Source: a virus
DNA length: 64,000 bases
Virus record (IMG/VR): IMGVR_UViG_3300037069_000806
Span: 3,493-67,492 of that record
Reading direction: 5' to 3' (one strand)
Part shown: positions 27,037 to 44,202 of the stretch, one piece after another
Numbering within the stretch: the first letter of the stretch is position 1
Layout: each line of letters begins with the position of its first letter
Translations under genes and position numbers: made by a program
Notes under the pieces: model-generated
What the model saw: the letters and a program-made list of their open reading frames with translations, nothing else
Database searches by the model: none
What the model was told of the DNA's origin: nothing

Positions 27037-27088
27037 TTGTCGGAAGTACCTACTACGATCAGTTCATCGGAACCGCCACTGATCGGAG
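27037..27088 (+). promoter_or_regulatory. RecA-NDp (PafBC-type) promoter tTGTCGG-N10-TACGAT with an SD-occluding hairpin
   Basis: TGTCGG at 27038-43 and TACGAT at 27054-59; stem CTACGATCAGT/ACTGATCGGAG. Confidence 0.65.
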
Positions 27089-27094
27089 CAAACA

Positions 27095-28184: not shown

Positions 28185-28189
28185 ACCCT

Positions 28190-29053: not shown

Positions 29054-29079
29054 ACACCTAGTCGCCCTCCCGCAGTCCC

Positions 29080-29117
29080 GAGGCCCCCGGCTGACCCCTT
29101 CCCCGGCCGGGGGCCTC
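29080..29117 (+). terminator. Hairpin between ssb and pol
   Basis: GAGGCCCCCGGCT / GGCCGGGGGCCTC. Confidence 0.55.
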
Positions 29118-29144
29118 ACCTCCCACCACCACATGAGGAGTCTT

Positions 29145-31079
29145 GTGTCCAACATCGTCACCGACCCGAACCACCTGCGCGAGGTGCTCGCGTACTTCGA
29201 GCGGCAGGATGCGTTCGCGTTCGACGTCGAGTCCTTCGGCGAGAACCGGGGCGAGCCGACGCAGAACACCCTCAACTGGCTGTCTATGGCCACCAAGGGC
29301 ATGGCCGTGGCGATCCCCTTCGGTCACCCCAACGGGGACCGGCTCATCTCCAAGGCGACCCGTCGCATGGACAAGGCGACGCGGAAGTTCACCCAGATCC
29401 CGGCGCGCTACGAAGACCCGCCCGCACAGATGCGGCCGAGTGAGGTCTTCGGGACGCTGCGCCCGCTGTTCTTCGGGGACCAGATCAAGATCGCGCACAA
29501 CGCGACGTTCGACCTCGTGTCCGTGGCCAAGTACTTCGGCGGCGAGTGCCCGACAGGTCCCTACGAGGACACCATCGTTATGCAATGGCTCCTGGACGAG
29601 AACCTGAAGACCAAGGGCCTGAAGGACATGACCATCAAGCGCTACGGCGTGTCCTACGACGACGAACACGTCGGCCGGATGGTGGAGGCCCACCCGTTCA
29701 GCAAGGTCGGCCGGTACGCCTACCTCGACGCCAAGTACACCTGGCTTCATCGCCAGCGGATGCGTCCGCTGCTGGAGGAGCAGGGTCTGTGGCCTGTGTT
29801 CGACCTGGAGATGGACGTCCTCAAGGTTCTGCTGGGCATGAAGATGCACGGTGCAGTCGTGGATGAGGAGGCCATCCGCAACCTGGAGGTGGACCTGTCC
29901 GAGCGGCTGGTCGACATCGAGGCCACCATCTACCAGCGCGCCGGTCGACGGTTCAACATCAACTCGACGGCCGACAAGGTCAAGGTGCTCTACGACCCCA
30001 AGGACGAGGGTGGGCAGGGACTCCGTCCCCTGAAGGAGACGCCCGGCGGCCAACCCAGCACCGACCGGGAGTCGCTGGAGGCGCACGAGTCCAACCCCCT
30101 GGTCCAGGCGTTGTTGGAGTACGCGGAGATCAACAAGTTGCTGGGCACCTACGTGCGCGGCTACCTGGGGGACCCCGAGGACCCGAAGAAACCGAGCATC
30201 ATCTACGACGGGCGGATCCACGCGGACCTCGTCCAGTACGGCACGGTCACCGGCCGATTCTCCTGTCGCGAGCCCAACCTCCAGAACATCCCTCGCCCGG
30301 ACAGTGACCTGGGCAAGAAGATCCGAGGCCTGTTCGTTGCCCCTCCGGGGTACAAGATGATCGTCGCGGACTACGGGCAGATCGAGATGGTCCTGCTCGC
30401 CCACTACATCGGCAAGGGCCGCCTATTCAACGACCTGCTCGACGGTGGAGACCCGCACTCAGCCACGGCCGCCGCCCTGATGGGGCTGGACTACGCCGAG
30501 TTCATCGAGCGGATGGATGGTGGCGACGCTGAGTGCAAGCAGATGCGACAGGTCGCCAAGGGCCTCAACTTCGCCATCGTCTACGGCGCGGGCCCAGACA
30601 AGGTCGCTGCGATGGCTGGCATCTCCGTGAAGGAGGCCAAGCGCTTCCTCAAGATGCATGCTGAGACCTTTCCCGAGATCCACAAGTTCAAGGACCGGGT
30701 GATCGAGACCTGCAAGGCCCGCCGCCCGGCCCACATCGTCACCCTCCTGGGCCGCAAGCGTCGCCTCCCGACCATCTTCTCCAAGGACTGGAGCGTCGCG
30801 GGCTACGCCGAGCGCCAGGCGGTGAACTCCCTGGTCCAAGGGAGCGCAGCAGACATCATCAAGTTGGCCATGGTCCGGCTAGACGCGGCCCTGCCCGAGG
30901 ACATGCACCTGATCCTCTCGGTCCATGACGAACTCGTAACCCTTGCGCCGGAACATCGGGTCGAGGAGGCCGTCGAACTGGTCCGAGAGGCTATGCTAGG
31001 AACCGGTATTAAAGAACTGATTCACGTGCCCCTGAAGTCCGACATCAAGGTCGTTGACCGGTGGGCTGAGGCCAAGTGA
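29145..31079 (+). CDS. polA: DNA polymerase family A (3'-5' exonuclease + polymerase)
   Basis: FDVE, HNATFD and YAYLDA exonuclease motifs; TGRFS..PNLQNIP; ADYGQIE; AKGLNFAIVYG (Phe at the 762-equivalent position); VHDEL. Confidence 0.96.
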   Translation: MSNIVTDPNHLREVLAYFERQDAFAFDVESFGENRGEPTQNTLNWLSMATKGMAVAIPFGHPNGDRLISKATRRMDKATRKFTQIPARYEDPPAQMRPSEVFGTLRPLFFGDQIKIAHNATFDLVSVAKYFGGECPTGPYEDTIVMQWLLDENLKTKGLKDMTIKRYGVSYDDEHVGRMVEAHPFSKVGRYAYLDAKYTWLHRQRMRPLLEEQGLWPVFDLEMDVLKVLLGMKMHGAVVDEEAIRNLEVDLSERLVDIEATIYQRAGRRFNINSTADKVKVLYDPKDEGGQGLRPLKETPGGQPSTDRESLEAHESNPLVQALLEYAEINKLLGTYVRGYLGDPEDPKKPSIIYDGRIHADLVQYGTVTGRFSCREPNLQNIPRPDSDLGKKIRGLFVAPPGYKMIVADYGQIEMVLLAHYIGKGRLFNDLLDGGDPHSATAAALMGLDYAEFIERMDGGDAECKQMRQVAKGLNFAIVYGAGPDKVAAMAGISVKEAKRFLKMHAETFPEIHKFKDRVIETCKARRPAHIVTLLGRKRRLPTIFSKDWSVAGYAERQAVNSLVQGSAADIIKLAMVRLDAALPEDMHLILSVHDELVTLAPEHRVEEAVELVREAMLGTGIKELIHVPLKSDIKVVDRWAEAK

Positions 31080-31102
31080 TGGGCGACCCCGAGGAGAACG
31101 AC

Positions 31103-31519
31103 ATGACGGATGACTTGACGCATCTCGAAGAGGGCCTCAGTAACCTCCAGATCGAGAACTACGACACCCTCCGTCGGAAGTTGATGTACGACCTCTTCCC
31201 TCACACCATGCTGACCGAGGGCTTCGCCGCTTTGGGTATCGTGCCCGGCTCTGACGAGGTAGTCGACCTGGAGCACATGGCATCCCATGTCCGCGACGCG
31301 AAGATGAGCAGCACCCTTCATCAGGTGACCCTCTTCATTGGGGCCATAGCGGGTGAGGTTCTAGCGTCCGCCCAGTTGATGGGCTCCGATGCCAAGGGAC
31401 TCCCTGCCGAGAAGAAGCAGCAGTACAGGTACGAGATCGCACAGGTCGTTCAGGTCGCGTCCGTCGCAGTGGTGGCGGAACTGCTGGACCTGGGCGTAAT
31501 CGCGCAGATGGGCCAGTGA
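31103..31519 (+). CDS. Hypothetical protein
   Basis: GAGGAG SD. Confidence 0.65.
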   Translation: MTDDLTHLEEGLSNLQIENYDTLRRKLMYDLFPHTMLTEGFAALGIVPGSDEVVDLEHMASHVRDAKMSSTLHQVTLFIGAIAGEVLASAQLMGSDAKGLPAEKKQQYRYEIAQVVQVASVAVVAELLDLGVIAQMGQ

Positions 31520-31520
31520 C

Positions 31521-31967
31521 ATGGGCTTCTGGGACAACGTAGCCGGATCCGCGCCTCAACAGCAGCCTGCGCAGGCCCGTCAAGAGCCTGTGCGGAACTC
31601 CCCGCAGCCCTGGTGGGCCCCTGCCCCACCGCAGCAAGCGCAGCCGCAAGTACAGGCGATCCCGCAACCTGAGATGAATGAAGATGAGGCCGAGTGGAAT
31701 GGCTATGTTGGATCAACGCAGCCGAAGAAGGCCCTGTCTCGCCTGAAGCATGACCGTTGTCCCTCGTGCGATAGCACGAACTACGGTCAGCCCCAAGGGC
31801 ATCCGAACGCTGTCGCGCAGTGCTACGAGTGCGGGTACAACCCTCGCTTCCACCAGGAGACTTCCGCGCTCCCTAGCAACGGTGGGCCCATCCAGGCGAC
31901 CAAGCAGGTCAGCACCGCGAACAACTGGAACCCGCAGGGCATCGTCGGCAACGTCAACAGCGTCTGA
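31521..31967 (+). CDS. Zinc-ribbon protein with a P/Q-rich N-terminus
   Basis: CPSCDS.NY...CYECGY. Confidence 0.75.
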   Translation: MGFWDNVAGSAPQQQPAQARQEPVRNSPQPWWAPAPPQQAQPQVQAIPQPEMNEDEAEWNGYVGSTQPKKALSRLKHDRCPSCDSTNYGQPQGHPNAVAQCYECGYNPRFHQETSALPSNGGPIQATKQVSTANNWNPQGIVGNVNSV

Positions 31968-32015
31968 CCTTCGCCAACCCGATCTAACGCTCGCACAAGG
32001 GAGTGCTATCTCTTC

Positions 32016-33647
32016 ATGTCTGTTTCCGTTCGCCCTGCCACGTCTATGTCCGACTTTGCGCGCACCATCTACGAGCAGAAGTATCGCCAGCCCGATGAGA
32101 CCGACTGGGTGGACACGGCCCGTCGGGTGGTCGCCACGGTGATGGAGCCGTACTTCCCAGAGATGGTCGAGGAGACCGTGGCTCTCGTGGCAGCGCGGAA
32201 GTTCATGCCAGGCGGCAGGTACCTATACGCCACAGGGAAGCGCTTCCACCAGACCCAGAACTGTCTGCTCCTCCGAGTCGAGGACAGTCGCGAGGGTTGG
32301 GCCAGCCTGATGCAGCGGATCACCAACGGGCTCATGACCGGGGCCGGTATCGGCTGCGTCTACTCCGCCTTGCGGCCGAGCGGGGCACTGGTCAAGGGCA
32401 TGGGCGGGCTCTCCACCGGACCGCTGGCGCTCATGCAGATGGTCAACGAGTCGGGCCGCCACATCATGCAGGGAGGCTCGCGACGGGCCGCTATCTGGGC
32501 GGGTCTTCATTGGAACCACGCCGATGTCTTCGACTTCATCCGGATCAAGGACTGGTCCGACGACATCAAGGTGATGAAGGAGCAGGACTACAACTTCCCC
32601 GCGCCGATGGACATGACCAACATCTCGGTGATCCTGGACGACGACTTCTTCGAGGCTTACGCCAACGCCGACGACCCGATGCATGACTGGGCCCACCGGG
32701 TGTACTGGGAGACGGTCGAGCACATGCTCACCACCGCCGAGCCTGGCTTCTCCGTAGACAGTGGCGCGAACGCGGGGGAGAACCTGCGCAACGCCTGCAC
32801 CGAGGTCACCTCGTCCGACGACAACGACATCTGCAACCTCGGCTCGCTCAACCTCGCCCAGTTCGACACCATCGAGGAGTTCGAGCGCGCGGTCTTCCTG
32901 GGCACGGCCTTTCTCCTCTGCGGCACCCTCTACTCCAAGGTCCCCTACGAGGAGGTGGCTGAGGTTCGGACGAAGAACCGCCGCCTCGGCCTGGGTCTCA
33001 TGGGCATCTACGAGTGGCTGGTCACCCGGGGCTACGAGTACAAGGAGAACGACGAACTGGCCCTGTGGCTGGATCAGTACGCGCTCAGCGGGGAGTACGC
33101 CAACACTCTGGCTGACTTCCTCGGCATCTCTCGGCCGGTCAAGACGCGGGCCATCGCGCCGACCGGCACCATCGGCATCCTCGCCGAGACCACGACCGGC
33201 ATCGAGCCCCTGTTCGCGACCGCGCTGAAGCGTCGGTACCTCAAGGGCACCGAGTGGAAGTTCCAGTACGTCGTGGATGCCACCGCACAGCGGCTGCTGG
33301 ACAAGGGCGTGGACCAGTCCCTCCTAGTGGACGCCTACGACCTGGCGGAGAACCCAGAGCAGCGCGTTGCGTTCCAGGCATGGGTGCAGCAGTGGGTGGA
33401 CCACGGAATCTCCAGCACCCTCAACCTCCCGGCCCGCGACCAGCAGTCGTTCACCACCCGGGAGTTCGGGGACATGCTGATGGGCTACCTGCCACGCCTT
33501 CGCGGGGTCACGTGCTACCCCGACGGCGCGCGCGGTGGACAGCCGTTGACCAAGGTCCCACTCGCCGAGGCCATGGAGTGGGAAGGCCTGGAGTGGGATG
33601 AGGTCGGCAACGGACTTGCGTGTGTGTCAGGGGTCTGTGGTATTTGA
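32016..33647 (+). CDS. nrdJ: Class II (B12-dependent) ribonucleotide reductase
   Basis: FMPGGRYL, QNC, RNACTE, CNLGSLNL, RRLGLG and IAPTGT motifs; C-terminal CVSGVC; no beta subunit nearby. Confidence 0.9.
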   Translation: MSVSVRPATSMSDFARTIYEQKYRQPDETDWVDTARRVVATVMEPYFPEMVEETVALVAARKFMPGGRYLYATGKRFHQTQNCLLLRVEDSREGWASLMQRITNGLMTGAGIGCVYSALRPSGALVKGMGGLSTGPLALMQMVNESGRHIMQGGSRRAAIWAGLHWNHADVFDFIRIKDWSDDIKVMKEQDYNFPAPMDMTNISVILDDDFFEAYANADDPMHDWAHRVYWETVEHMLTTAEPGFSVDSGANAGENLRNACTEVTSSDDNDICNLGSLNLAQFDTIEEFERAVFLGTAFLLCGTLYSKVPYEEVAEVRTKNRRLGLGLMGIYEWLVTRGYEYKENDELALWLDQYALSGEYANTLADFLGISRPVKTRAIAPTGTIGILAETTTGIEPLFATALKRRYLKGTEWKFQYVVDATAQRLLDKGVDQSLLVDAYDLAENPEQRVAFQAWVQQWVDHGISSTLNLPARDQQSFTTREFGDMLMGYLPRLRGVTCYPDGARGGQPLTKVPLAEAMEWEGLEWDEVGNGLACVSGVCGI

Positions 33648-33657
33648 TCACGAGTCC

Positions 33658-33731
33658 GGGCGTGTCGGCTGACTTGAACCGGTTCCAGGGATACGGTTCC
33701 CCTGATGATTCCAAGACAGGGAGAACCGTAT
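33658..33731 (+). promoter_or_regulatory. Class-II promoter (GGGCGTGTCG..AACCGGTT-N7-TACGGT) with an SD/ATG-occluding hairpin
   Basis: ATACGGTTCCCCTG (33691-704) pairs with CAGGGAGAACCGTAT (33717-731). Confidence 0.75.
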
Positions 33732-34023
33732 GTCTACTCTCGCTGAAGCACTCACCCAGGTCGAGTCCACCACCGACCCCGGGTGGCGGGCCGCCACCGA
33801 GATCGTCATCGACGGTCTGATCCGGGTCGGCGAGACGTTCACTGCTGACGATGTGTGGGAGGGCTTGGAGGACTACGAGGTCTCCACTCCCGAGCCCCGT
33901 GCCATGGGCGCGGTGCTGACGTCCTACGTCAACGCCGGGAAGATCCGCGCCGTCGGTGGCACCAAGAGCCGTCGGCCCCAGCGGCACTCAGGATGGGTCA
34001 CCGTCTTCGAGGTCATTGCATGA
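33730..34023 (+). CDS. Hypothetical protein (possible winged helix)
   Basis: FTADDVW...EPRAMGAV motif. Confidence 0.75.
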   Translation: MSTLAEALTQVESTTDPGWRAATEIVIDGLIRVGETFTADDVWEGLEDYEVSTPEPRAMGAVLTSYVNAGKIRAVGGTKSRRPQRHSGWVTVFEVIA

Positions 34024-35246
34024 ACGACGAAGCCAAAGCATTGATGGCGAAGATCAACAAGCAACACGGCGACGGCACCGTTGTGCTCGCCTCGGACATG
34101 CGGGTCGCCCGCCGCTTCACCTCCGGCTCCCTGTCTTTGGACATCTCCCTCGGTGGCGGCTGGCCCGCCAACCAGTGGATCGAGGTCCGGGGCCGGGAGA
34201 GCCACGGCAAGACCGCCATCGTCCTGAAGACCATCGCGGCCAATCAGGCTGCGGATCCCAACTTCACGACGCTGTGGATCGCGGCCGAGCACTACGACGT
34301 CGACCAAGCGACAGCCCTTGGCATCGACAACGACCGCATGATCGTGGTCAACACGCAGCAGATGGAGTTCGCATTCACCACGATGCTGGATTTCGCGAAC
34401 AGCCGGTCGGTCGACGCCATCGTTCTGGACTCCTACCCGGCACTCATCCCGGACGACGAGGCCGCCAAGGACATGGACGAGATGACTGTGGCGCTAGGTG
34501 CCCGGCTCCTCGGCAAGTTCTTCCGCAAGGCGGGCCCCGCAACCAAGCGCTCGCTTTCGGACACCGAGGACCGGCCCATCGTCGGCTTCGTCATCAACCA
34601 GTTCCGTGACCAGATCGGTGGCTTCTCACCGCACGGCGTCCCGCAGACCACCCCGGGTGGTAAGGCCAAGAACTATGCCTTCTACGTGCAGGTCGACGTC
34701 GCGCGCGCGGAGTTCATCGAGGAGGCCCGGCCCGGTAAGGGCAAGGTCAAGGTGGGCCAGACCATCAAGGCCACGACCGTCAAGAACAAGAGCGCCCCGC
34801 CCCGTCAGGTGGCCACGGTCGACTTCTACTTCCGCGACGCCCCCTTCCTCGGATTCGTCCGGGGTGAGTACGACGAGGTCAAGGAGATCGTGACCCTCGG
34901 CGTCGTGTTCGACGTCATCACCCGGCGCGGTGCCTACTTCGAGTTCGAGGGCGGCCGTTGGCAGGGCAAGGAGTCCATGATCCAGGCGTTCCGAGAAGAC
35001 CTGGGCCTGCGGGCTACCGCACGTGAACGCATTCTCATCGCAGCGACCGAGCCCGACGCCCCCGTGCTGGAGGAGTCAGTGGTTGCTGCTGCCACCACCG
35101 CTGGGGTCCGGACTATCAGGAGGACCAGTGGACCGACAGATCAAGAGGTCGCGGCAGCAGGAGACGAGGCTGGCGAAGGACATCGGGGGCAGCCGGAACG
35201 CGATGAGCGGAGCGGGTTGGCTCCGGAAGAACGACGTGCAATCTGA
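34020..35246 (+). CDS. recA: RecA-like recombinase
   Basis: SGSLSLDISLGGGWP, GRESHGKT, IVLDS, INQFR and TPGG motifs. Confidence 0.95.
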   Translation: MNDEAKALMAKINKQHGDGTVVLASDMRVARRFTSGSLSLDISLGGGWPANQWIEVRGRESHGKTAIVLKTIAANQAADPNFTTLWIAAEHYDVDQATALGIDNDRMIVVNTQQMEFAFTTMLDFANSRSVDAIVLDSYPALIPDDEAAKDMDEMTVALGARLLGKFFRKAGPATKRSLSDTEDRPIVGFVINQFRDQIGGFSPHGVPQTTPGGKAKNYAFYVQVDVARAEFIEEARPGKGKVKVGQTIKATTVKNKSAPPRQVATVDFYFRDAPFLGFVRGEYDEVKEIVTLGVVFDVITRRGAYFEFEGGRWQGKESMIQAFREDLGLRATARERILIAATEPDAPVLEESVVAAATTAGVRTIRRTSGPTDQEVAAAGDEAGEGHRGQPERDERSGLAPEERRAI

Positions 35247-35490
35247 AGATGTTTCGGTCGAGGCCAAGTACACCGACAAGAAGTCGTTCAGCCTGAAGGT
35301 GGACGACCTTCTCCTCGCCGAGAAGTACGCGCTCTTGGACGACCGCGACCTCGTCTTCGCCATCGAGTTCTCCACGGCTGGCCGCACCTTCGCGGTCATC
35401 TCGTGGGAGGACTACCTCGGACTCAAGGCCACATCGAATCTCATCGGGGGTGAACGCCATGGTAATGCGCCTGAGAACACCGGCTCCTGA
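35128..35490 (+). CDS. PD-(D/E)xK nuclease, Holliday junction resolvase-like
   Basis: QE.RLAK..GG..SGAGW.RKNDV...VEAKYT; AGGAGG SD. Confidence 0.8.
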   Translation: MDRQIKRSRQQETRLAKDIGGSRNAMSGAGWLRKNDVQSEDVSVEAKYTDKKSFSLKVDDLLLAEKYALLDDRDLVFAIEFSTAGRTFAVISWEDYLGLKATSNLIGGERHGNAPENTGS

Positions 35491-35845
35491 CTGGAGCAGG
35501 GCCAAGTGCGTCCGCTTCCCACCCAAGCGGGACGCTGACCCCTGGTACGACGACATGGACGAGGCTATTCAGGTCTGCAACGGGGACGCCGACGGCATCG
35601 TCTGCCCGCTCCGCCAGCAGTGCCTGGAGTTCGCGCTCGTCAACAACCTGGCGCACGGGATCTTCGGTGGCATGTACGAGCATGACCGCCGCCGCCTGCG
35701 ACGCGACGCCCGCGAGGTCAAGAAGCCGTGGCATCAGGCCATCGAGGACGGTGATTGGACATGGCAGGAGCCAACCGAGTTGTGCGACGACGCACCGGAG
35801 GAAGTGGAGCCGGAGGAGGACGAGTACGACCCCGAGGCAGCCTAG
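35459..35845 (+). CDS. whiB: WhiB-family transcription factor
   Basis: W..AKC...C(x8)CP.RQQCLEFAL...HGIFGG...DRRRL. Confidence 0.88.
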   Translation: MVMRLRTPAPDWSRAKCVRFPPKRDADPWYDDMDEAIQVCNGDADGIVCPLRQQCLEFALVNNLAHGIFGGMYEHDRRRLRRDAREVKKPWHQAIEDGDWTWQEPTELCDDAPEEVEPEEDEYDPEAA

Positions 35846-36885
35846 AGGCCCTGGCCACCGCCCGGAACAAGGAGTCGATCCTCGGCGACATGGAGGAGCA
35901 CCTCCTAGCCAAGTACCAGGAGGAGAACGACCGGCGGCAGGACGTCATCCATCCCTCGGAGATGGCCAAGGCTGACTGGTGTCCTCGTGCTACCTACTAC
36001 CGGATCCGCGACGCACGTCTGGGTCTGTACACGAACACGGCTGAGAAGTTCAGCGGCCAGCGCGAGCGCATCTTCCAAGAGGGCCACGACATCCATCACA
36101 AGTACCAGGGCTACCTGCGCGCGATGGGTGTGCTCTGGGGCAAGTGGACGCGGCTCGACAAGGCCGACACCTACGTGGGTCTACCCCCCGAGAAGGAGAT
36201 GCGGCCAGGACAGTGGCGCTACGACGAGGTCCCCCTGTCGTCGCCCCGGCTGCTGATCTCTGGCCACGCCGACGGGGGGCTGCCGTACCGTTCCGGGATC
36301 CTTGAGGTCAAGTCCATCGGCACCGGGACGCTGCGGTTCGAGAACCCCACGTTGCTGACCAAGCACACCGTCGAGGCGACCACCGTGACCGGGGTCACCA
36401 AGAAGATCGTGGATCTGGACGGGCTCTGGCGTGACATCAAGCGCCCCCTCGGCAGCCACCTCAAGCAGACCTTCATCTACGGAGTGCTCGCCACCGAGAT
36501 GGGGCTCCCGTTCGACAAGACGATCTTCATCTACGAGAACAAGGCCACCCAGGCGGTGAAGCAGTTCGAAGTGAAGTTCGATCCCGAAGCGGTTGACAAG
36601 CAGATCGGCGCGGCGCTTGACATCAAAGCAGCGCTGGACGATTCTGGACATCTACCCAAGAGGCCCCGCCACACGGGCACCGACACCAAGATCTGCAAGG
36701 CCTGCCCGTTCCTGAAGGAGTGCTACGAGAATGAGCCGACGGACGACCGCGAGACGAGCGCCCATGAAGATGGGGTCGAGCAGCCGCGCCGCGTCCGAGT
36801 CGTTGACGACTCAGGGACTTCATCTGCCGGAGCGCCCGAGAGGCGACGTGCCCGGGTTGCCCGACGACCCTACCGGCCTGACTGA
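35761..36885 (+). CDS. Cas4-like PD-(D/E)xK exonuclease
   Basis: HPSE...CPR, GHADG...ILEVKS, HLKQ..IY and CKACPF..EC motifs. Confidence 0.88.
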   Translation: MAGANRVVRRRTGGSGAGGGRVRPRGSLEALATARNKESILGDMEEHLLAKYQEENDRRQDVIHPSEMAKADWCPRATYYRIRDARLGLYTNTAEKFSGQRERIFQEGHDIHHKYQGYLRAMGVLWGKWTRLDKADTYVGLPPEKEMRPGQWRYDEVPLSSPRLLISGHADGGLPYRSGILEVKSIGTGTLRFENPTLLTKHTVEATTVTGVTKKIVDLDGLWRDIKRPLGSHLKQTFIYGVLATEMGLPFDKTIFIYENKATQAVKQFEVKFDPEAVDKQIGAALDIKAALDDSGHLPKRPRHTGTDTKICKACPFLKECYENEPTDDRETSAHEDGVEQPRRVRVVDDSGTSSAGAPERRRARVARRPYRPD

Positions 36886-37246
36886 CAGCCAACTGATGTC
36901 GCTGTTCGTCCAGTTGACGGAGTGGGCGGCGTACATGGGCACGCAACTCGCCGTGGCCGAGGTCGATGAGCGACACGACCTGTCTGTGGTCGAGAGGTGC
37001 CGCGCCATCAGCACGTCAGCCAACAGCGGAGGCAAGACCACGGTCACTGCCGCCAAGGCACAGGCATACAACGACCCCGAGTTCCTGGAGTCCACAGAGA
37101 AGGCAGCCACCAGCCACGCGTATCGCAAGTTGGTGGAGGCGCTGTACAACGCGACCGACCGCAAGGCACAGGTGCTGTCCCGGGAACTGACCCGTCGGGT
37201 AGGCCGCGAGCCGCGCGAGAACCGAAGGGACAGGTACACCGCATGA
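36731..37246 (+). CDS. UvsY-like recombination mediator
   Basis: Helical protein ending LSRELTRR; next to recA and the exonuclease; assignment is inference. Confidence 0.6.
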   Translation: MSRRTTARRAPMKMGSSSRAASESLTTQGLHLPERPRGDVPGLPDDPTGLTDSQLMSLFVQLTEWAAYMGTQLAVAEVDERHDLSVVERCRAISTSANSGGKTTVTAAKAQAYNDPEFLESTEKAATSHAYRKLVEALYNATDRKAQVLSRELTRRVGREPRENRRDRYTA

Positions 37247-37422
37247 GTGAGCACGTTCATGACTGGAAGTCCGAGGGCATCTTTGACCTCGGCAAGTACG
37301 AGAAGCAGTCCTGTCAGAAGCCGTTCTGCGACGCGGTGCAGTGGTTCTCCGGCCCCGTTGGACTGCTGCCTAACGTCCCCCCGGGGTTCCCGGTCGACGC
37401 CCCTGCATGGGCCACATCATGA
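37243..37422 (+). CDS. Small hypothetical protein (H/C-rich)
   Basis: ATGA overlaps on both sides. Confidence 0.55.
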   Translation: MSEHVHDWKSEGIFDLGKYEKQSCQKPFCDAVQWFSGPVGLLPNVPPGFPVDAPAWATS

Positions 37423-37772
37423 CCAGCATCTGGCGTGCTCAGGTCACTCGTCCCACTGAGCCCTGGCGGTTCAGTGGCGAATACGGCGCGCTCCTCAATG
37501 TGGACGTCGCCCTCTCCCCGGACTACGGGTCGGATTGGGCGGTCTTCTGGAGCGGTGGCGAAACGTTGACCCACGTCCGGTTCACCGAGGAGGGGGTCCG
37601 TCCTGCGAGTCCCCAGGTCCGGATCCCAGAGGAGGCGGCCAGGGCCCTGTATGACGCGCTGGGCTACTACTTCGGCGGCCACTCCACCCCCAACCAGGCC
37701 GCCCTGGCTGATGCGCTGAAGGTCGAGCGCGGCCGGGTGGACCTCGTCCTGAAGAAACTCCTGGAGGACTGA
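37419..37772 (+). CDS. Hypothetical protein
   Basis: Translationally coupled ORF. Confidence 0.65.
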   Translation: MTSIWRAQVTRPTEPWRFSGEYGALLNVDVALSPDYGSDWAVFWSGGETLTHVRFTEEGVRPASPQVRIPEEAARALYDALGYYFGGHSTPNQAALADALKVERGRVDLVLKKLLED

Positions 37773-37969
37773 TGAGCGAGCAGACGTTCAAGAACACCCA
37801 GTCCTCGAAGACGGAGGAAGCGGATGTGGTGGCTCCGGTTCCCACCGAGAGCATCGCGGATCAAGAACTGATGAAGAGCACCGACGACCTGCTGGACGAG
37901 ATCGACACGCTGCTGGAGCCCAACGCCCAGGAGTTCGTGGACGGTTTCGTTCAGAAGGGCGGCGAGTGA
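37772..37969 (+). CDS. pup: Prokaryotic ubiquitin-like protein Pup (GGE terminus)
   Basis: TDDLLDEIDTLLEPNAQEFVDGFVQKGGE matches the Pup C-terminal consensus (DDLLDEID.VLE.NA..FV..YVQKGG[QE]); GGAGG SD. Confidence 0.95.
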   Translation: MSEQTFKNTQSSKTEEADVVAPVPTESIADQELMKSTDDLLDEIDTLLEPNAQEFVDGFVQKGGE

Positions 37970-38670
37970 TGCGGCTGCGCTCTGACATGACCGTCGAACT
38001 GGTCCAGAAGATGGGGGACGACGAGACCCTGTGCAAGGCCGCTCGCGTGTCCACGCTGGGTACCGCCAGCCTTGAGACGACCGAGAGCAGTGGCCTCCTC
38101 AACTTCCTGATGAAGGGGAGGCACGGAAGCCCGTTCGAACACGGGTCCATGACGTTCCTGATCGAGGCCCCGATCTTCGTGTTCCGGGAGTTCCACCGGC
38201 ACAGGGTCGGCTGGTCGTACAACGAGACGTCGGGTCGGTACCGGCAACTGGAGCCGGTCTTCTACGTGCCCCCGACCAACCGCCCCCTCAAGCAGGTGGG
38301 TAAGGCCGGGGAGTACTCGTTCGAGCCGGGAACGTCCGAGCAGAGGGGCCTCATCGCGAAGGCCGCCGGAGTTTGCTACGGGACGGCGTGGAGCGCGTAC
38401 AAGTCGATGCTCGCAGAGGGTGTCGCCAAAGAGGTCGCCCGGATGGTGCTGCCTGTCGGCATCTACTCCTCGATGTACGCCACCTGCAACCCGCGCTCGC
38501 TGATGCACTTCCTCAGCCTGCGGACCACCGAGCCGTCCCCGTCGGCCACCTTCCCCTCGCACCCGCAGTACGAGATCGAGTTGGTCGCCCGGCAGATGGA
38601 GTTCATCTTCGCCGACCTCTTCCCGCTCACCACGGTGGCCTGGAACCTCAACGGAAGGGTGGCACCCTGA
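37969..38670 (+). CDS. thyX: Flavin-dependent thymidylate synthase
   Basis: H.SPFEH, RHR.GWSYNETSGRY, EVARMVLP, NPRSLMHFL.LR and QYEI motifs. Confidence 0.96.
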   Translation: MRLRSDMTVELVQKMGDDETLCKAARVSTLGTASLETTESSGLLNFLMKGRHGSPFEHGSMTFLIEAPIFVFREFHRHRVGWSYNETSGRYRQLEPVFYVPPTNRPLKQVGKAGEYSFEPGTSEQRGLIAKAAGVCYGTAWSAYKSMLAEGVAKEVARMVLPVGIYSSMYATCNPRSLMHFLSLRTTEPSPSATFPSHPQYEIELVARQMEFIFADLFPLTTVAWNLNGRVAP

Positions 38671-38942
38671 TGGCGAAGCAGACGTTCTACGCGGTGGCTG
38701 AGCCTGTGTTCAGCAAGTGGGCCAGGGACAAGGACGGCGACCCTCGGCTTGACTCGTTCAGGGTGACCAAGGTGTTGCAGACCCGCCCGGTCGGCACACT
38801 CAAGGCCGGGTCTCTGGCCGTCAAGTTGACGATGGAGATTCCAGACCGGGCCTTCGCCCCGTTGCGCCCTGAGGTCAACATCGTCATCCCCGAGGAACTG
38901 GTGCAGTACCCGGTGGCTGTGGTCGCGGCGGACGAAGGATGA
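38670..38942 (+). CDS. Hypothetical protein
   Basis: TGATG coupling. Confidence 0.65.
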   Translation: MAKQTFYAVAEPVFSKWARDKDGDPRLDSFRVTKVLQTRPVGTLKAGSLAVKLTMEIPDRAFAPLRPEVNIVIPEELVQYPVAVVAADEG

Positions 38943-39259
38943 TCCACCCCCGTCGCTGGCGCATTGTGCGCTCGATCCGCCGCCGTCTCGGTCTTCCGTG
39001 CCTGTCCGGTGCATGCGTTCGCAGCGGTCAGTGGGGCGCGCATCACACGAAGTGGTGTCACTGCGAGGACACGGACCTGACGCTCCGCGACCGCGCCATG
39101 ACCTGGCCGAGCCTGACCCTCGGCGTCGAGGTGCTGCCCTGGAACTGGGAGTTCCGGTGGTGGCAGGACTGGGACATGACGTCATCCTTCGACCTTCGGT
39201 TCCTGTTCCTGCGGGTTGCGTGGTTCGCCAACCGACCGATGTTCCGGGACACGCCGTGA
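38939..39259 (+). CDS. Hypothetical protein (Trp-rich)
   Basis: ATGA overlap. Confidence 0.5.
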   Translation: MIHPRRWRIVRSIRRRLGLPCLSGACVRSGQWGAHHTKWCHCEDTDLTLRDRAMTWPSLTLGVEVLPWNWEFRWWQDWDMTSSFDLRFLFLRVAWFANRPMFRDTP

Positions 39260-39690
39260 TCGAACTGGTCGTGGTCCTGTTCATCCTGCTTGTGCTGGCG
39301 GGGGCCCTCTGGCTCCGCAGCAGCATCGTCAACAACCATCTCGAAGACATGATCGACTTGATGTCCGAACGCCTGGTCGCTGGACAGGATCGCGAGGCGG
39401 TGTGGAAGCGCCAGATGCAGAAGGTGGTCAACACCTTCGAAGAGGCCAACAAGAACATGAACCCGAACGCTCGTGGTGCGGCGCTGGCCAGTGCCCTGGC
39501 CTACAGCCAGGAAGCACAGCGGGTCACTTGGGAGCGGGACGTCATGTACGCCTGCGAGGCCGTTCCCGGCATCGTCACCACCCGCCACATGAGAGCCCGC
39601 AAGGCAGTGGCGCTTGCGTCCGACGCAGAAGCCGCGCGCCAGGGGATCACTCCCGCCCAACTCTTCTTCTCGTCCCTCAAACCCCTTTAG
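39256..39690 (+). CDS. Membrane-anchored hypothetical protein
   Basis: N-terminal TM segment IELVVVLFILLVLAGALW. Confidence 0.65.
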   Translation: MIELVVVLFILLVLAGALWLRSSIVNNHLEDMIDLMSERLVAGQDREAVWKRQMQKVVNTFEEANKNMNPNARGAALASALAYSQEAQRVTWERDVMYACEAVPGIVTTRHMRARKAVALASDAEAARQGITPAQLFFSSLKPL

Positions 39691-39700
39691 GAGGTCCCGC

Positions 39701-40378
39701 ATGCCAATGGTCGTCGGTCTTCATGGTTACGCCCAGTCCGGCAAGGACACCGTGGCGAAGGTGCTCATCGAGCGCTACGGCTTCAAGCGACTGGCCTTCG
39801 CCGATGCCCTGCGGGAGGCGCTCTACCGGCTCAACCCCTGGGTCTGCGTCGTGTTGCCCTTCAACTTCGACGTTCCCAAGGAAGACTACGTTCGGCTCCG
39901 CGACTTGGTCGACACCTACGGGTGGGACGAGGCCAAGCAATACCACGAGGTCCGTGTCCTCCTCCAGGCTATGGGAACCGAGGTCGGCCGGGAGGTCATC
40001 AGCGACACGGTCTGGATCGACATCGTCCTTCGGCAGATCGAGCAGCAGTGGGACGGCCGGTTCGTGATCACCGACGTCCGGTTCGAGAACGAGGCCCAGG
40101 CGCTGGACGATGCGTTCGGAAACACCTCCGGGGCGTCCCTGGTCCTGGCCAAGATTGTCCGCCCGGGCGTTGGGCCCGTGAACGCCCACGTGTCGGACGC
40201 CGGACTCCCCGACTTCTACTTCGATGAGACGATCAACAACGACGGGACCCTGGAAGATCTGGGGCGCGAGGTCACCGCCCTCCTGGGCCCCCTCGTCACC
40301 GGCCCCCCGGCCTCCTCTCTGCCGGTCGACCCGGTGGCGCTTGAGGCCAACGCCCTCTTCGATTCGTACGTTGGCTAG
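39701..40378 (+). CDS. Deoxynucleoside monophosphate kinase
   Basis: GLHGYAQSGKDT, FADAL, R.LLQ.MGTE.GR and VITDVRFENE motifs. Confidence 0.92.
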   Translation: MPMVVGLHGYAQSGKDTVAKVLIERYGFKRLAFADALREALYRLNPWVCVVLPFNFDVPKEDYVRLRDLVDTYGWDEAKQYHEVRVLLQAMGTEVGREVISDTVWIDIVLRQIEQQWDGRFVITDVRFENEAQALDDAFGNTSGASLVLAKIVRPGVGPVNAHVSDAGLPDFYFDETINNDGTLEDLGREVTALLGPLVTGPPASSLPVDPVALEANALFDSYVG

Positions 40379-40712
40379 TCGGTCACGGGTTCATCGGGGG
40401 CGCAAGACCCAGGAACTCGTCGCTCAGTGGTTCGAGAAGAGGGGCTGGCCCCGGGCGTACTCCAAGGGAGCGAGCGCGTCTGGCAAGGACATCATGAGGA
40501 TGACCGGTCTATCCCCTGAGGTGAAGGCCACCACGGGCAGTGACTATCTCGGGGCCCTTCGCCAGGCGGAGGCGAATGCGGAGCCCGGAGACGTCTCCTT
40601 CGTTGTCCACCGGCCCAACGGATACGGACCCGAGAAGATCGACCGATGGCTCATGATCCTCCGCCTGGAGGACGGGACCGAACTGCTGAAGAAGGCTGGT
40701 TACCAAGACTGA
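40371..40712 (+). CDS. Hjc-like PD-(D/E)xK resolvase
   Basis: RG..TQ.LVA...G.DI....PEVKA. Confidence 0.75.
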   Translation: MASRSRVHRGRKTQELVAQWFEKRGWPRAYSKGASASGKDIMRMTGLSPEVKATTGSDYLGALRQAEANAEPGDVSFVVHRPNGYGPEKIDRWLMILRLEDGTELLKKAGYQD

Positions 40713-40720
40713 CCGAATCC

Positions 40721-40766
40721 TTCGTACCCTCGTTTCGGGAATCACTTGACAACCGAGGGGTACGAA
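40721..40766 (+). promoter_or_regulatory. SD-occluding hairpin with a -10-like TACCCT in the 5' arm
   Basis: TTCGTACCCTCG / CGAGGGGTACGAA, immediately before ATG 40767. Confidence 0.65.
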
Positions 40767-41057
40767 ATGGGCGCACAAGTTGATCGTGATGAGGAGAACC
40801 TGCTGCGGGTAGCCGCTACCAGCGCTCCCTCTGAGTTGGCCGCCGCTATCTCCCATGCGTTGTACGACAGCAAGCGCGTGGTTCTGCGGGCCATTGGAGC
40901 AGGAGCCGTCAACCAGTCGGTGAAGGCCATCGCCATCGCTCAGTCCTACGTGGGCCAGCGGGGGCTGTACCTGACCTGCCGACCAGGCTTTGCCACCGTG
41001 AAGATGCCGGACGGCAAAGAGGTCTCGGCCATCGTCTTCCGCGTTGAGGCGAACTGA
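40767..41057 (+). CDS. spoVS: SpoVS-family (Alba-like) protein
   Basis: LRVAATS.P..LA.AI....RAIGAGAVNQSVKAIAIA...L.C.PGF. Confidence 0.88.
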   Translation: MGAQVDRDEENLLRVAATSAPSELAAAISHALYDSKRVVLRAIGAGAVNQSVKAIAIAQSYVGQRGLYLTCRPGFATVKMPDGKEVSAIVFRVEAN

Positions 41058-41065
41058 TACTTCCC

Positions 41066-41111
41066 AACCGGTTCCTCCTACACTTCAAGTAGGCCTATGC
41101 CTGGAGGAACT
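41066..41111 (+). promoter_or_regulatory. AACCGGTT-N5-TACACT promoter with an anti-SD stem
   Basis: GTTCCTCC (41071-78) is complementary to GGAGGAAC (41103-110). Confidence 0.65.
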
Positions 41112-41112
41112 T

Positions 41113-41394
41113 GTGGACGGAACCAACCCATACCAGGGCCCGAGTACGGGTCAGGGTCGTCGGGCTGCGTTCATTCAGCAGGCGCTGGCGCACACAGCGC
41201 CGTACCAGCGTCGATCTGTTCTCGACTCGACTCCTTCAGGCACCGGCTACGCAGCGGCCGACCGGTCTCGGATGCTCCCGAGCGGCGACTTCTTGCACAC
41301 CCCCAACGGGGTCGCCCAGGACACCTGGCAGACACGCCAGAACTCCTACCTGGACGCCCCCGCATCGAAGTTCTCGTACCGGCCGTTCGGCTAA
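41113..41394 (+). CDS. Hypothetical protein
   Basis: GGAGG SD + GTG. Confidence 0.6.
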   Translation: MDGTNPYQGPSTGQGRRAAFIQQALAHTAPYQRRSVLDSTPSGTGYAAADRSRMLPSGDFLHTPNGVAQDTWQTRQNSYLDAPASKFSYRPFG

Positions 41395-41405
41395 GGAGTC
41401 CGCGC

Positions 41406-41801
41406 ATGTCTGCTTCCGCTTCCCTCAACCGTCCTGCTGGGTCTTGGACGGGCTACCCCGACCCGAGCAAGACCAACCTGATCTCCGACGCCGACGTGCG
41501 CGGCGGCAGCGCGAACTTCCCGGCCGAGGGCACCGAGGTCGCGACCCGGGTTTCCAACGTGTCCGCTGCGCCGAGCAAGAACACCAAGCCGCGCAAGAAG
41601 GGCAACGCGTCCGGCGGTGCCATCGAGGCCGCGACCGCGACCCACAAGGCCAACATCGCCGAGCGCCTGGGTGCCAAGTGTGCCCCGACGGTCCCGATGT
41701 ACAAGGCGAACGCGCCCGAGGCTGGGCTGACCGGCCGCAACGTCCGCATCCTTCCTTCCTCGATGGGTAGCCGGGACTTCTACGACCGTCGCGACGCGTA
41801 G
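41406..41801 (+). CDS. Hypothetical basic, low-complexity protein (possibly virion-associated)
   Basis: AAGGAG SD. Confidence 0.7.
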   Translation: MSASASLNRPAGSWTGYPDPSKTNLISDADVRGGSANFPAEGTEVATRVSNVSAAPSKNTKPRKKGNASGGAIEAATATHKANIAERLGAKCAPTVPMYKANAPEAGLTGRNVRILPSSMGSRDFYDRRDA

Positions 41802-41803
41802 CC

Positions 41804-42310
41804 GTGGCTGCGGTCCAGCGGCCTACGACAAGGAGTCGCCGGGCCCACTTCGACACGGGCGTGACCCGGGATCATGCGCAGGAAGCCACCGAGGCCATAT
41901 CTCGGTTGCAGTCGGCTGATCCCTCGTCGTACTGGCGCGTAAGCCCTCCCGAGCCCGGGGCCGCCGTTCATCCGATTCATGGTGCGCGGGGAGAGACGGC
42001 TGGCTTCGTCGCTCTCAAGCCTGAGGGCAACCACAAGGTCAACATCGGCGGTCTCGTCGCGAAGCCCGGGCACAGCGGCATCACCCGCGCTGCGCTGGAG
42101 GTCGCAGACCGTCGGCACCCCGACCGGTCACAGCACCTTGACGCGTTCGACGGCCACCTGCCCCAGATCTACGCCAAGCACGGCTTCCAGGAGACCGGCC
42201 GCCTTCCCTTCGATGAGAAGTACGCGCCCGCCTCGTGGAAGCCCGAGTTCGGCAAGCCCGACGTCGTCTTCATGTCCCGGCCTTCGGCCCGCGAGCGAGG
42301 TGTGGGATGA
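41804..42310 (+). CDS. GNAT-like acetyltransferase
   Basis: IGGLVAKPG..GI..AAL..A; LDAFDGHLPQIYAKHGF.ETGRLPF...PDVVFM. Confidence 0.7.
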   Translation: MAAVQRPTTRSRRAHFDTGVTRDHAQEATEAISRLQSADPSSYWRVSPPEPGAAVHPIHGARGETAGFVALKPEGNHKVNIGGLVAKPGHSGITRAALEVADRRHPDRSQHLDAFDGHLPQIYAKHGFQETGRLPFDEKYAPASWKPEFGKPDVVFMSRPSARERGVG

Positions 42311-42837
42311 GCGCCCAGAACTGGCTTTCGACCCAGGATGGGCTTCCGAGTACCCCCGTTCGCTCCAACGGCGGTGGGGGAACTCAGATTGTCGGCTTCC
42401 GGTCGGTCCTGGACGCGCGCCGGGCGATGTTGGGCCAGCGGGCCCCATCTGCTGAGTACCCCGACGGCTACCTCGGCACGATCATCGACCGTCGCCAGGA
42501 CAAGTTGCTCAAGGAAGTCCAGAACCGACTGACCAGCCGGTCCTATCAGCGCGGAGTCCACAAGGGGGAGCGCGTTGATCCCCGCGACTACCGCTGGAAC
42601 GGGGACGTCGATCCCCAGGCCGGTCTGCGGGCTGAGGCGCGCGGTGAGAAGTGGACCGCCGCCGGAGCCACCCCGCAAGAGAAGTTGGCGCACATGGGCA
42701 AGGTCGACGCCCTGACGCCGCAAGAGATGGACGCGCTCTACCAGAAGTTCGGGGTGGATCCGTCCATGCGTGACCTCACCGTGGCATCGCCAGAACGGCA
42801 GTCACGTCTCGCCGAACTGCGACCCCGCTGGAGGTAA
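42307..42837 (+). CDS. Hypothetical protein (PSAEYPDGYLGT motif)
   Basis: ATGA overlap; GAGGTG SD. Confidence 0.7.
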   Translation: MSAQNWLSTQDGLPSTPVRSNGGGGTQIVGFRSVLDARRAMLGQRAPSAEYPDGYLGTIIDRRQDKLLKEVQNRLTSRSYQRGVHKGERVDPRDYRWNGDVDPQAGLRAEARGEKWTAAGATPQEKLAHMGKVDALTPQEMDALYQKFGVDPSMRDLTVASPERQSRLAELRPRWR

Positions 42838-42843
42838 GCCAAC

Positions 42844-44202
42844 ATGGCCCGGCAACGTAACCCTCAAGAGCCCCTCCAGTGGGACAACCTGTCCTCGGCG
42901 GACCAGAGGACTGGCGCGCAGAACGTTCGCGCGTACGGCCAGCACCTGGGCGACCTTGCCAACAAGCAGGCCGACAGCAAGGAGCGCCAGGCGGAGAAGT
43001 CCAAGCCGTCCTCGGCCAAGACCCAGCGTGTCGCCGCTGCTCGCATGCGCAAGGCGGCCGACGCCATCGGCGGTGTCGACCTGACCCTGGGACGAGCCAC
43101 CCGTAACCGAGTCTCGGCGGTCGAGGATGCAGCGACCTCGCACCGGATGCCCCACGAGTCGGTTGCTGGCGCGGGATGGTACTTCGACGCGCATCGTGCA
43201 GTCCGTGAGGCCGCCCCGAACCTTCCAGTTCACCGGGCCATCGGTGCCTCCTCCTCTCTGTCTCCGGGCGCACGGCCCGAGGACGAGCGCAAGGCTCTGG
43301 GTGGGATCGCGGACGCGAACGAGAAGGGCTCCGTCACCATGCACCCCCGCCTGGTGCAGCACCTGGAGTCGCGCGGCGTCAGTGTCCCGGACGAGGTCAA
43401 GGGCAAGTCCGTGAAGTTCTCCGACCTGCCCGGCCACGTGGTCGGTGCAATGGCGGCTCCGGAGTCGCGGGCCTCGGTAGCCAAGCACTCGCGTGGTGTG
43501 GAGTGGGACCGTATCAGCGCTGTCTCGAACCCGCTGACCCTTGGCAAGGCGCACGACGTCGTCCGTGGTCACATCGAGCAGGCGCAGGACCCGAGTGCGG
43601 CCCCCAAGACGTGGTCCTACACGCAGAACCAGGAGCACTCCGTTCCTGGAACGCCCGAGCATCACGAGTACATGGACCGCGCCGACGACCTGGGCAAGCG
43701 GATTCGTGGCGAAGTCCCGAAGGGCCAGGCGACTCTGGACCTGTATGGCCGTCACCAGTCCAACGAGGGTCCGCTGTCCAACCACGGCCACACTGCCGAG
43801 GACTCCTGGCAGCGCTCGATCTCCATCGACCGCAAGCACCCGAATCTCTCCAAGTCACTGGGTGACCAGGCCCCTCCGCCCAAGGGCGCGGTCGGCAAGG
43901 GTGACACCTCGGTCACGGCGGGCGGCGTATACCACGCCTGGAACAACGAGGCGACGCGCCGTGCCTCCGTCCACCTTCAGGACAAGCACGGGATGGACCG
44001 GACCGTGCCGACCACGCTGGTGCAGGAGACGGGCTGGACATCGACGCGCCGACGGGCGGCCAACGAGGGTCGTGGCGAAGCAGGCAGCAAGGACCCGCAG
44101 TGGAACGCGCACGTGCGAAGCCGCAACGCCGAGGCGAAGGCCGGGGCTGACGCGCTGAAGGCCGACGCGAAGCCCATCAAAGGCCAAGGAAAGTTGTTCT
44201 GA
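42844..44202 (+). CDS. Protein with a phage HhH-glycosylase-like core and C-terminal QGKLF
   Basis: GWYFDAH..A.GA.S.LSP, PKTWSY..N, TAEDSW and VQETGW pattern; fold is inference. Confidence 0.6.
   Translation: MARQRNPQEPLQWDNLSSADQRTGAQNVRAYGQHLGDLANKQADSKERQAEKSKPSSAKTQRVAAARMRKAADAIGGVDLTLGRATRNRVSAVEDAATSHRMPHESVAGAGWYFDAHRAVREAAPNLPVHRAIGASSSLSPGARPEDERKALGGIADANEKGSVTMHPRLVQHLESRGVSVPDEVKGKSVKFSDLPGHVVGAMAAPESRASVAKHSRGVEWDRISAVSNPLTLGKAHDVVRGHIEQAQDPSAAPKTWSYTQNQEHSVPGTPEHHEYMDRADDLGKRIRGEVPKGQATLDLYGRHQSNEGPLSNHGHTAEDSWQRSISIDRKHPNLSKSLGDQAPPPKGAVGKGDTSVTAGGVYHAWNNEATRRASVHLQDKHGMDRTVPTTLVQETGWTSTRRRAANEGRGEAGSKDPQWNAHVRSRNAEAKAGADALKADAKPIKGQGKLF

Follow-up and report, generated by a model that had tools for sequence, protein, structure and literature searches.

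An orphan phage gene for Pup, a ubiquitin-like protein of prokaryotes, suggests that a virus supplies a ready-made degradation tag to the protein-tagging machinery of its host

A genuine phage carries a genuine Pup-family gene that is orphaned from its pathway, suggesting that the virus supplies a ready-made degradation tag to the protein-tagging machinery of its host. The gene lies in a 64,000-nucleotide stretch of viral DNA (hereafter, the window), which comprises bases 3493-67492 of a 67,492-bp linear IMG/VR virus record that is 68% complete by CheckV. Pupylation has so far been described as a cellular pathway with its genes in one conserved locus. A Pup gene that occurs outside this locus, in numerous phages unrelated to one another, would give the first direct indication from genomes that phages engage the Pup system.

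The open reading frame (ORF) at 37772..37969 on the plus strand starts with ATG, encodes 65 amino acids and ends in ...FVQKGGE followed by TGA, as given by the ORF list and by direct reading. A Shine-Dalgarno (SD)-like GGAGGA was read directly from the same strand at 37763..37768, with 3 nt between it and the ATG. The deduced protein matched Pfam PF05639 over residues 7-65 with 62.4 bits (E 8e-17) and NCBIfam TIGR03687 over residues 36-65 with 60.8 bits (E 8.9e-17), the curated cut-offs being 27 and 41.45 bits, respectively, and a search of the DNA of the whole record with PF05639 gave 61.3 bits. No PHROGs family matched the protein. All 14 of the 14 invariant columns (M1, L41, D42, I44, D45, E49, N51, A52, F55, Q61, K62, G63, G64 and E65) were kept; these were read from an alignment of 21 Pups, namely the window Pup and 20 Pups of a collection of 5.8 billion proteins. 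Because two curated models score the ORF above their cut-offs and every invariant column is kept, the ORF is, as judged from its sequence, a true member of the Pup family, and a chance match is ruled out. The earlier note had described a 65-aa Pup ORF with its own SD, a coupling to thyX and a GGE end, all of which the sequence and both HMMs bear out, and the Pup HMM hit that its claim required was obtained well above the cut-off of each model.

The ligated Glu of known Pups sits in the C-terminal block. In the window Pup, the conserved C-terminal block corresponds to codons 37-65 (TDDLLDEIDTLLEPNAQEFVDGFVQKGGE; 37880..37966, plus strand), as delimited by the TIGR03687 match over residues 36-65 and by the modelled PafA interface. 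The block of known Pups consists of two helices that lie in the PafA/Dop groove in a two-helix binding mode, according to part of the text of PMC8599861, and the window Pup has this conserved two-helix block with one departure, D at position -9. Its Gly-Gly-Glu stands immediately before the stop codon (TGA, 37967-37969), as is expected of either Gly-Gly-Glu or Gly-Gly-Gln in Pups, and its 65 residues fall within the family range of about 60-70 (given in part of PMC3511204). The whole protein contains four Lys (K7, K13, K35 and K62).

Pups bind the Mpa/ARC coiled coil by way of a long helix, and their disordered N-terminus is threaded into the pore. Codons 1-36 (37772..37879, plus strand) encode a variable, polar N-terminal half, which in known Pups contains both the segment used for threading and part of the helix that binds Mpa, as described in part of PMC8755798. 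It had been proposed in the earlier note that the divergence of this half could make the protein a poor degradation signal; the argument is not supported, as N-terminal halves vary in every Pup lineage, both the identity and the length of this one are ordinary among Pups, and nothing in it hints at poor threading. Its median identity to cellular Pups was 0.22, the cell-to-cell median being 0.24 (range 0.14-0.36), and 39 residues precede the conserved block, the median length being 42. Like other N-terminal halves it is polar and acidic, although it contains neither Gly nor Arg. Its best match reached 0.33, and 5 of 79 cellular rows had a best match at or below this value; the low best match reflects the absence of a close relative and not an odd sequence.

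Because stop and start codons overlap on both sides, the Pup gene is predicted to sit within a run of translationally coupled phage genes. Upstream, the stop codon (TGA) of a 121-aa ORF (37407..37772, plus strand) overlaps the ATG of Pup by its final A (TGATG); this ORF matched no Pfam or PHROG family and had no relative in the 60 other Pup-bearing viral loci. Downstream, the TGA of Pup overlaps the start of the thymidylate synthase gene thyX (37966..38670, plus strand; phrog_85, E 2.1e-70), which would be either GTG at 37966 or ATG at 37969. Pup is held within a co-directional DNA-metabolism module (32016..41057, plus strand) that was recognised by PHROG and Pfam matches and includes RNR, a UvsX/RecA-like recombinase, a resolvase, WhiB, a Cas4-like exonuclease and three unknown ORFs, along with ThyX, a dNMP kinase, a RusA-like protein and SpoVS. 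A promoter and terminator scan of positions 31000-43000 found no promoter-like site, and terminator-like sites were no commoner than in shuffled sequences.

The genes of the record are nearly all on one strand, and its G+C content is 63-69%. PHROG and Pfam matches to structural proteins (tail sheath, tape measure and tail fibre) were accompanied by replication matches (two helicases, a DnaB-like helicase, a primase, an SNF2 helicase, DNA polymerase I and RNR), and other matches included a UvsX/RecA-like recombinase, resolvases, a Cas4-like exonuclease, WhiB, dNMP kinase, SpoVS and an amidase. The DNA polymerase of the window shares 51-52% identity with its counterparts in Streptomyces phages LuckySocke, Alone3 and BRock. 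Likeness to cultured phages at the DNA level was seen for thyX only, which is 78.6% identical to thyX of Streptomyces phage Zuko. WhiB, the base composition of about 65% G+C, and the likeness of DNA polymerase and thyX to those of Streptomyces phages together point to a probable actinobacterial host. Soil metagenome runs contain the stretch, three of them with all sampled words, which may be the source samples; among the sequencing runs listed as matching there was no RNA run.

The window Pup travels without the enzymes of its pathway. PF03136 (PafA/Dop) and PF00227 (proteasome) had no match in the 67,492-bp record at its CheckV completeness of 68%, and tblastn with Mpa, Dop, PrcB, PrcA and PafA of Arthrobacter glacialis found no match in the window. 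Pup here does not lie beside dop, prcBA, pafA and mpa as in the pupylation locus, which is a feature of the context and not of the protein. The same absence extended to the other viruses: PF03136 matched none of 61 Pup-bearing virus records including that of the window (0/49 and 0/12), and PF00227 matched none of the 49 such records searched. In a cellular control consisting of the best 80 of 554 Pup relatives, Dop, PafA, PrcB, PrcA and Mpa were found at most 4 kb from Pup in 76, 76, 75, 70 and 62 of the 80 loci, respectively, whereas the same approach found each of the five in 0 of 61 viral loci (60 plus the window). As no Pup-bearing phage record has a ligase of its own, the tag must rely on host enzymes, and the natural reading is that the window Pup depends on host PafA. 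These HMM and tblastn negatives agree with what had been noted at the outset, that pafA, dop, mpa and prcAB are absent from the window, and support the description of a phage Pup that lacks its own enzymes inside a thyX-coupled phage operon.

Relatives in other viruses came to light only with suitable queries. The window Pup had no match by tblastn against 50,697 GenBank phage records, and an IMG/VR scan with this single sequence found no relative. The IMG/VR scan with the 21-Pup alignment matched 90 stretches, of which 60, on 60 contigs, encode a relative; this count is a lower bound, since exact matches to two short patterns were required and the window's own record may have been left out. 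Orphan Pups are thus carried by at least 61 of about 2.9 million IMG/VR contigs. The C-terminal end stood directly before the stop codon on all 60 other contigs (35 GGE, 24 GGQ and 1 SGQ); the start codon was missing for loci L012, L027 and L049, and in the latter two the match opens at locus base 2. Several findings indicate that these contigs are viral. Of the first 49 Pup-bearing records, 13 were at least 90% complete, and five had direct terminal repeats (44-296 kb). Ten proteins flanking Pup were scanned at nine representative loci, giving eight PHROG matches; a phage function is named for seven of these, with terminase large subunit in three cases and endolysin, head maturation protease, portal and helicase in one each. 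Grouping by shared local gene families, which rests on crude gene calling that missed Pup in most high-G+C loci, divided the 60 viral loci into 11 groups plus 15 singletons and left the window by itself, giving about 27 groups. For 13 loci, genes were also called with a GC3 filter. The flanks vary by lineage (endolysin, head protease, terminase, portal, helicase or thyX), and the G+C content of the contigs ranges from 38 to 70%. The orphan Pup is therefore a recurrent class of phage genes, and the local gene content indicates that no phage-encoded partner travels with it.

A further tblastn search used a high-G+C viral Pup and the Arthrobacter Pup as queries, each of which matched two GenBank records, Streptomyces phage Dagobah and MT835496.1. 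In Dagobah (MT711977; host S. coelicolor M600), the gene HUN42_00036 (QMP84414.1) is annotated as 'ubiquitin-like protein Pup'; it lies directly after the endolysin gene and encodes 79 residues ending in VQVGGE. No Dop or PafA was found in the 12.2-kb stretch around HUN42_00036 (6 kb on each side). The other record, titled 'UNVERIFIED Bacteriophage sp.' (MT835496.1), was not accepted as a case of a phage Pup, since its Pup lies in a cell-like arrangement between Mpa/Dop and PafA matches; this scaffold is most likely bacterial DNA. The three Pup queries thus found one cultured phage with a Pup among the 50,697 GenBank phage records.

The protein encoded in the window occurs in identical form on 3 contigs. 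The closest protein to it in the collection of 5.8 billion proteins showed 55% identity, and the closest cellular Pup found, that of A. glacialis, was 57% identical over residues 1-65. A tree built from 124 Pups over 65 columns, in which 9 of its 120 branches were starred, identified no donor or host for the window Pup, and the all-viral cluster of 10 that holds it was unstarred.

Within lineages, phage Pups evolve under purifying selection. In two lower-G+C groups with usable (unsaturated) dS, dN/dS was 0.05-0.33, and several pairs of phage Pups differ by 1-3 silent changes with zero amino-acid changes; the high-G+C groups gave higher values of 0.3-0.95, but here the distances were large and the alignment of the variable half uncertain. 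The earlier note had called the GGE terminus ready to ligate, which is upheld for the window Pup but not as a feature specific to phages, as 20 of 44 viral Pups end in Q. After dereplication, the viral Pups divide into 24 with a final E and 20 with a final Q, and the 70 cellular Pups into 28 and 42, respectively, a rough comparison given that the cellular set was ranked by likeness to a GGE query. In one lineage, loci L046 and L047 (GGE) differ from L048 (GGQ) at five nucleotides and, in the protein, at the last residue only, and the E/Q state is therefore labile within a lineage. The Pups ending in Q would be useful only where Dop and PafA process them.

Two basic positions distinguish cellular from viral Pups. 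Position -4 is K in 70 of 70 cellular Pups and in 32 of 44 viral Pups including that of the window, the remaining viral Pups having R (6), Q (4), S (1) or A (1). Position -9 is R or K in 69 of 70 cellular Pups compared with 23 of the 44 viral ones. A second helix-1-like segment occurs in several viral Pups, namely those of the Dagobah-like group, L002 and L018. K61 of mycobacterial Pup is the pupylation site on free Pup, and Lys-to-Arg variants of Pup tag PanB normally, as reported in part of PMC4783102; loss of the Lys at -4 should therefore leave ligation intact. For position -9, the accessible text of PMC8599861 has no residue-level statement, the contacts being in a figure.

The compatibility of the window Pup with PafA was assessed in an ESMFold2 model of its complex with PafA of A. 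glacialis, chosen as the genome with the closest cellular Pup, using alignments of 26 rows for PafA and 21 rows for Pup. The complex scored 0.82, against 0.01 for the best of 3 controls; 58 of the 80 solved complexes used for reference attain the mark set for such models, as do 2 of the 110 mismatched pairs. Contact agreement among the runs was at least 97%, and the pLDDT of the partner was at least 60. The modelled interface comprises Pup residues 36-38, 40-41, 43-44, 47-49 and 51-65 (span 36-65), with residues 51-65 reaching PafA residues 11, 13-15 and 57-61. The PafA-Pup complex of C. glutamicum has already been solved (PDB 4BJR, as stated in part of PMC8599861), and the model therefore shows likeness to the known complex and not binding by the window copy. 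The window Pup may thus be compatible with the PafA groove, with A. glacialis PafA as a stand-in for the host enzyme.

Weighing these results, we consider it somewhat probable that the window gene encodes a working Pup tag, which is conjugated by host PafA and sustains or raises pupylation after takeover of the cell. The phage would make PupE together with its DNA-replication and nucleotide-metabolism genes, and the terminal Glu would be phosphorylated on its gamma-carboxylate by host PafA, which would attach the phage Pup to lysines of host, and possibly phage, proteins. The Glu end would bypass the Dop deamidation needed by Pups ending in GGQ, a distinction between GGQ and GGE Pups that is set out in part of PMC3511204. 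Tagged proteins would then continue to reach the Mpa/ARC unfoldase and, in hosts that have one, the proteasome, and the benefit may lie in amino-acid supply, in the removal of hindering host proteins or in the replacement of a used-up tag. For the window Pup itself, its conjugation in living cells, the proteins that it tags and the gain for the phage are what we infer.

The contrary scenario, that free phage Pup is a decoy that occupies PafA, Dop and the Mpa/ARC coiled coils, jamming pupylation and sparing lysine-bearing phage proteins, seems unlikely to us but has points in its favour. Free Pup binds all three host partners via the region conserved here (parts of PMC8755798 and PMC8599861), and an inhibitor of PafA or Dop would also need the C-terminal block, so that the evidence from family membership, selection and modelling is compatible with a decoy. 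Actinophage proteins have been proposed to be under pupylation pressure in work on lysine deserts (parts of PMC10665810 and PMC13696103), and the replication proteins of this phage contain 5-7% Lys. No lysine avoidance was seen in the proteins of this phage, where Lys makes up 3.8% of the proteome overall and a Lys-free stretch of at least half the length occurs in 5 of 31 proteins of at least 150 aa, figures to be read as lacking a proper baseline. As the phage proteins are not lysine-poor, raised pupylation could therefore hit them too. The relaxation of positions -4 and -9 in viral Pups, with D at -9 in the window Pup, also fits a decoy; together with the ordinary lysine content, it keeps both this scenario and that of an altered tag alive. 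However, a blocker could dispense with the exact GG[EQ]-stop end, yet an end of the form [GS]G[EQ] is kept in 61 of 61 viral Pups, and a ligatable PupE would end up conjugated and not merely bound. Furthermore, the GGQ forms bind Dop only for conversion into a substrate, and the length and make-up of the N-terminal half are ordinary. That every viral Pup has the GG[EQ]-stop end, and that GGQ forms are frequent, speaks more for genuine conjugation than for simple blocking.

A tag that is selective or non-degradative, placed on certain host or phage proteins for regulation, for unfolding by ARC or as a shield against host Pup and not for bulk proteolysis, for example in a host without a 20S proteasome, strikes us as quite improbable. 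To our knowledge, PafA does not select its substrates by which Pup is held. Some actinobacteria pupylate without proteasome genes (part of PMC3511204). In our Corynebacterium glutamicum control, PF00227 had no match, whereas the Pup and Pup-ligase controls matched. The differences at -4 and -9 between viral and cellular Pups could likewise suit a tag of this kind, and the loss of the K61 equivalent should abolish Pup-on-Pup linkage but not ligation (part of PMC4783102). However, the window Pup keeps K at -4 and is ordinary except for D at -9, and no phage-encoded adaptor is evident in the Pup-bearing viral loci. It is very improbable that the gene is a passenger, either a host fragment captured recently and without a role in the phage or an assembly chimera. 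Phages do acquire host genes, and the tree names no donor, but identities of only 55-57% to the closest proteins indicate that the capture of Pup was not recent. The passenger account also sits poorly with the overlaps with phage genes on both sides, the identical protein on 3 contigs and the three soil runs with all sampled words (though these may be the source samples), the purifying selection on Pups of other phage lineages and the recurrence of orphan Pups in about 27 local gene-content groups. A working tag that relies on host PafA is therefore the reading that we retain for the window Pup.

More speculatively, and with doubt, it is possible that phages of Actinomycetota routinely carry their own tag and reprogramme the host proteome via the host ligase, with the tag tuned for one-way tagging. 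Phages of other Pup-bearing phyla would perhaps be included, given the contigs with 38-70% G+C. The tuning would consist of the loss of the Lys at -4, the loss of the basic residue at -9 and the duplication of helix 1, and the phage tags may be removed poorly by host Dop or be unable to form Pup-Pup links. Should this reading hold, the phage tag would correspond, among viruses of bacteria, to the ubiquitin that other viruses encode. Provided that phage Pups are conjugated, they would represent a new class of host-takeover gene and provide natural variants for studies on the specificity of PafA, Dop and Mpa/ARC.

As far as our searches reach, the class of phage Pups is undescribed except for one unremarked GenBank annotation, that in Dagobah. 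The words ubiquitin, Pup, pupylation and proteasome are all absent from the main text of the Dagobah paper (PMC7650747), and a full-text search for pupylation or Pup with phage or Streptomyces coelicolor gave no paper on a phage-encoded Pup among the matches listed. The lysine-desert proposal, in which actinophage proteins avoid lysines and thereby escape pupylation (parts of PMC10665810 and PMC13696103), is within the same reach the sole link between phages and pupylation found in print, and the available text of these two papers makes no mention of a phage Pup.

Compared with cellular Pups, for example those of A. glacialis, Mycolicibacterium smegmatis and C. glutamicum, the window Pup matches in family, size, C-terminal block and GGE end, and it is modelled in the same PafA groove. 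Unlike them, it is phage-encoded and lies outside the mpa-dop-pup-prcBA-pafA locus, which is called rigidly conserved in part of a review (PMC3511204). It differs furthermore by an Asp at -9, a position that is Arg or Lys in 69 of 70 cellular Pups, and by its GGE end, since the cellular Pups nearest to it in identity, those of the Micrococcaceae, all have GGQ (9 of 9). The Dagobah Pup is the sole cultured precedent found and resembles the window Pup in being an orphan in an actinobacterial phage with a GGE end. Dagobah is, however, an unrelated phage with a 47-kb genome, in which Pup adjoins the endolysin gene and not thyX; its Pup has 79 aa, a duplicated helix-1-like segment and V at -4, compared with 65 aa and K at -4 in the window. 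Because Dagobah and its tractable host Streptomyces coelicolor exist, the question of phage Pups is directly testable.

Viruses of eukaryotes carry ubiquitin genes, such as v-ubi of baculoviruses, and phage auxiliary genes replace host components with a fast turnover, such as psbA of cyanophages. Like v-ubi, the phage Pup is a host modifier carried without conjugating enzymes, so that host ligases are needed. The chemistry and the domain of the host differ between the two, and the folds are unrelated, ubiquitin being a beta-grasp protein and Pup intrinsically disordered (part of PMC3511204). The likeness to cyanophage psbA is one of analogy only: each is a single host-derived gene without its pathway, which plausibly sustains a host process during takeover, Pup as a post-translational tag and genes of the psbA type as metabolic or photosynthetic proteins.

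Orphan Pup genes encoding a [GS]G[EQ] end immediately before the stop codon were present on 60 viral contigs from IMG/VR (L002–L061), and neither PafA nor Dop was found on any of the 60. The contigs ranged from 4 to 296 kb in size and from 38% to 70% in G+C content, fell into about 26 groups by local gene content, and in five cases carried terminal repeats. The G+C content of one 174-kb contig (L031; 38%) was well under that typical of Actinomycetota, and this virus may infect either a low-G+C actinobacterium or a host from a different phylum that has Pup. Furthermore, the cultured Streptomyces phage Dagobah has a Pup gene (L142:6001–6237, corresponding to MT711977 22613–22849; annotated in GenBank as 'ubiquitin-like protein Pup') directly 3' of its endolysin gene. 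This Pup ends in VQVGGE and is not mentioned in the main text of the paper describing the phage (PMC7650747). In the GenBank record MT835496.1 (38615–48716), labelled 'UNVERIFIED: Bacteriophage sp.', Pup is flanked as in cells, in the arrangement Mpa-Dop-Pup-PafA, and the record, whose Pup was rejected as a phage Pup, is probably bacterial DNA filed under phage.

The window also encodes a homologue of the stage V sporulation protein SpoVS (40746–41057, + strand; PF04232, 83.8 bits) and WhiB (35450–35845), which are phage-borne regulators of host development. As raw values without a baseline, lysine accounted for 0.7–2.7% of residues in the lysine-poor tail and fibre proteins (53–18078), several of which contain lysine-free stretches of 140–258 residues, and for 5–7% in the replication proteins (22541–31079), compared with 3.8% overall.

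The near-identical Pups of L046 (2092–2286) and L047 (4786–4980), both ending in GGE, differed from that of L048 (5918–6112), ending in GGQ, by 5 nt and a single residue, the terminal one. Judging from these sequences, ligation-ready and Dop-dependent forms of Pup interconvert inside a single phage lineage. The Pups of eight loci (L002, L015, L018, L038, L041, L042, L045 and the Dagobah locus) were longer, at 74–85 aa, with an extra helix-1-like segment (…IDDVLDEQ…) N-terminal to …LLADIDDLLEENA…, resembling a duplication of the binding helix. Viral Pups also departed from the cellular pattern at conserved positions. The lysine of QKGG (−4 from the C-terminus), which all 70 cellular Pups share, was substituted in 12 of 44 viral Pups, and the viral Pup at L049:2–151, which has a very long branch in the tree, ends in QQSGQ, the first glycine of the di-glycine being replaced by serine. 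At position −9, a basic residue was retained by only 23 of 44 viral Pups, against 69 of 70 among the cellular ones, and the window Pup has aspartate there (codon 57, 37940–37942).
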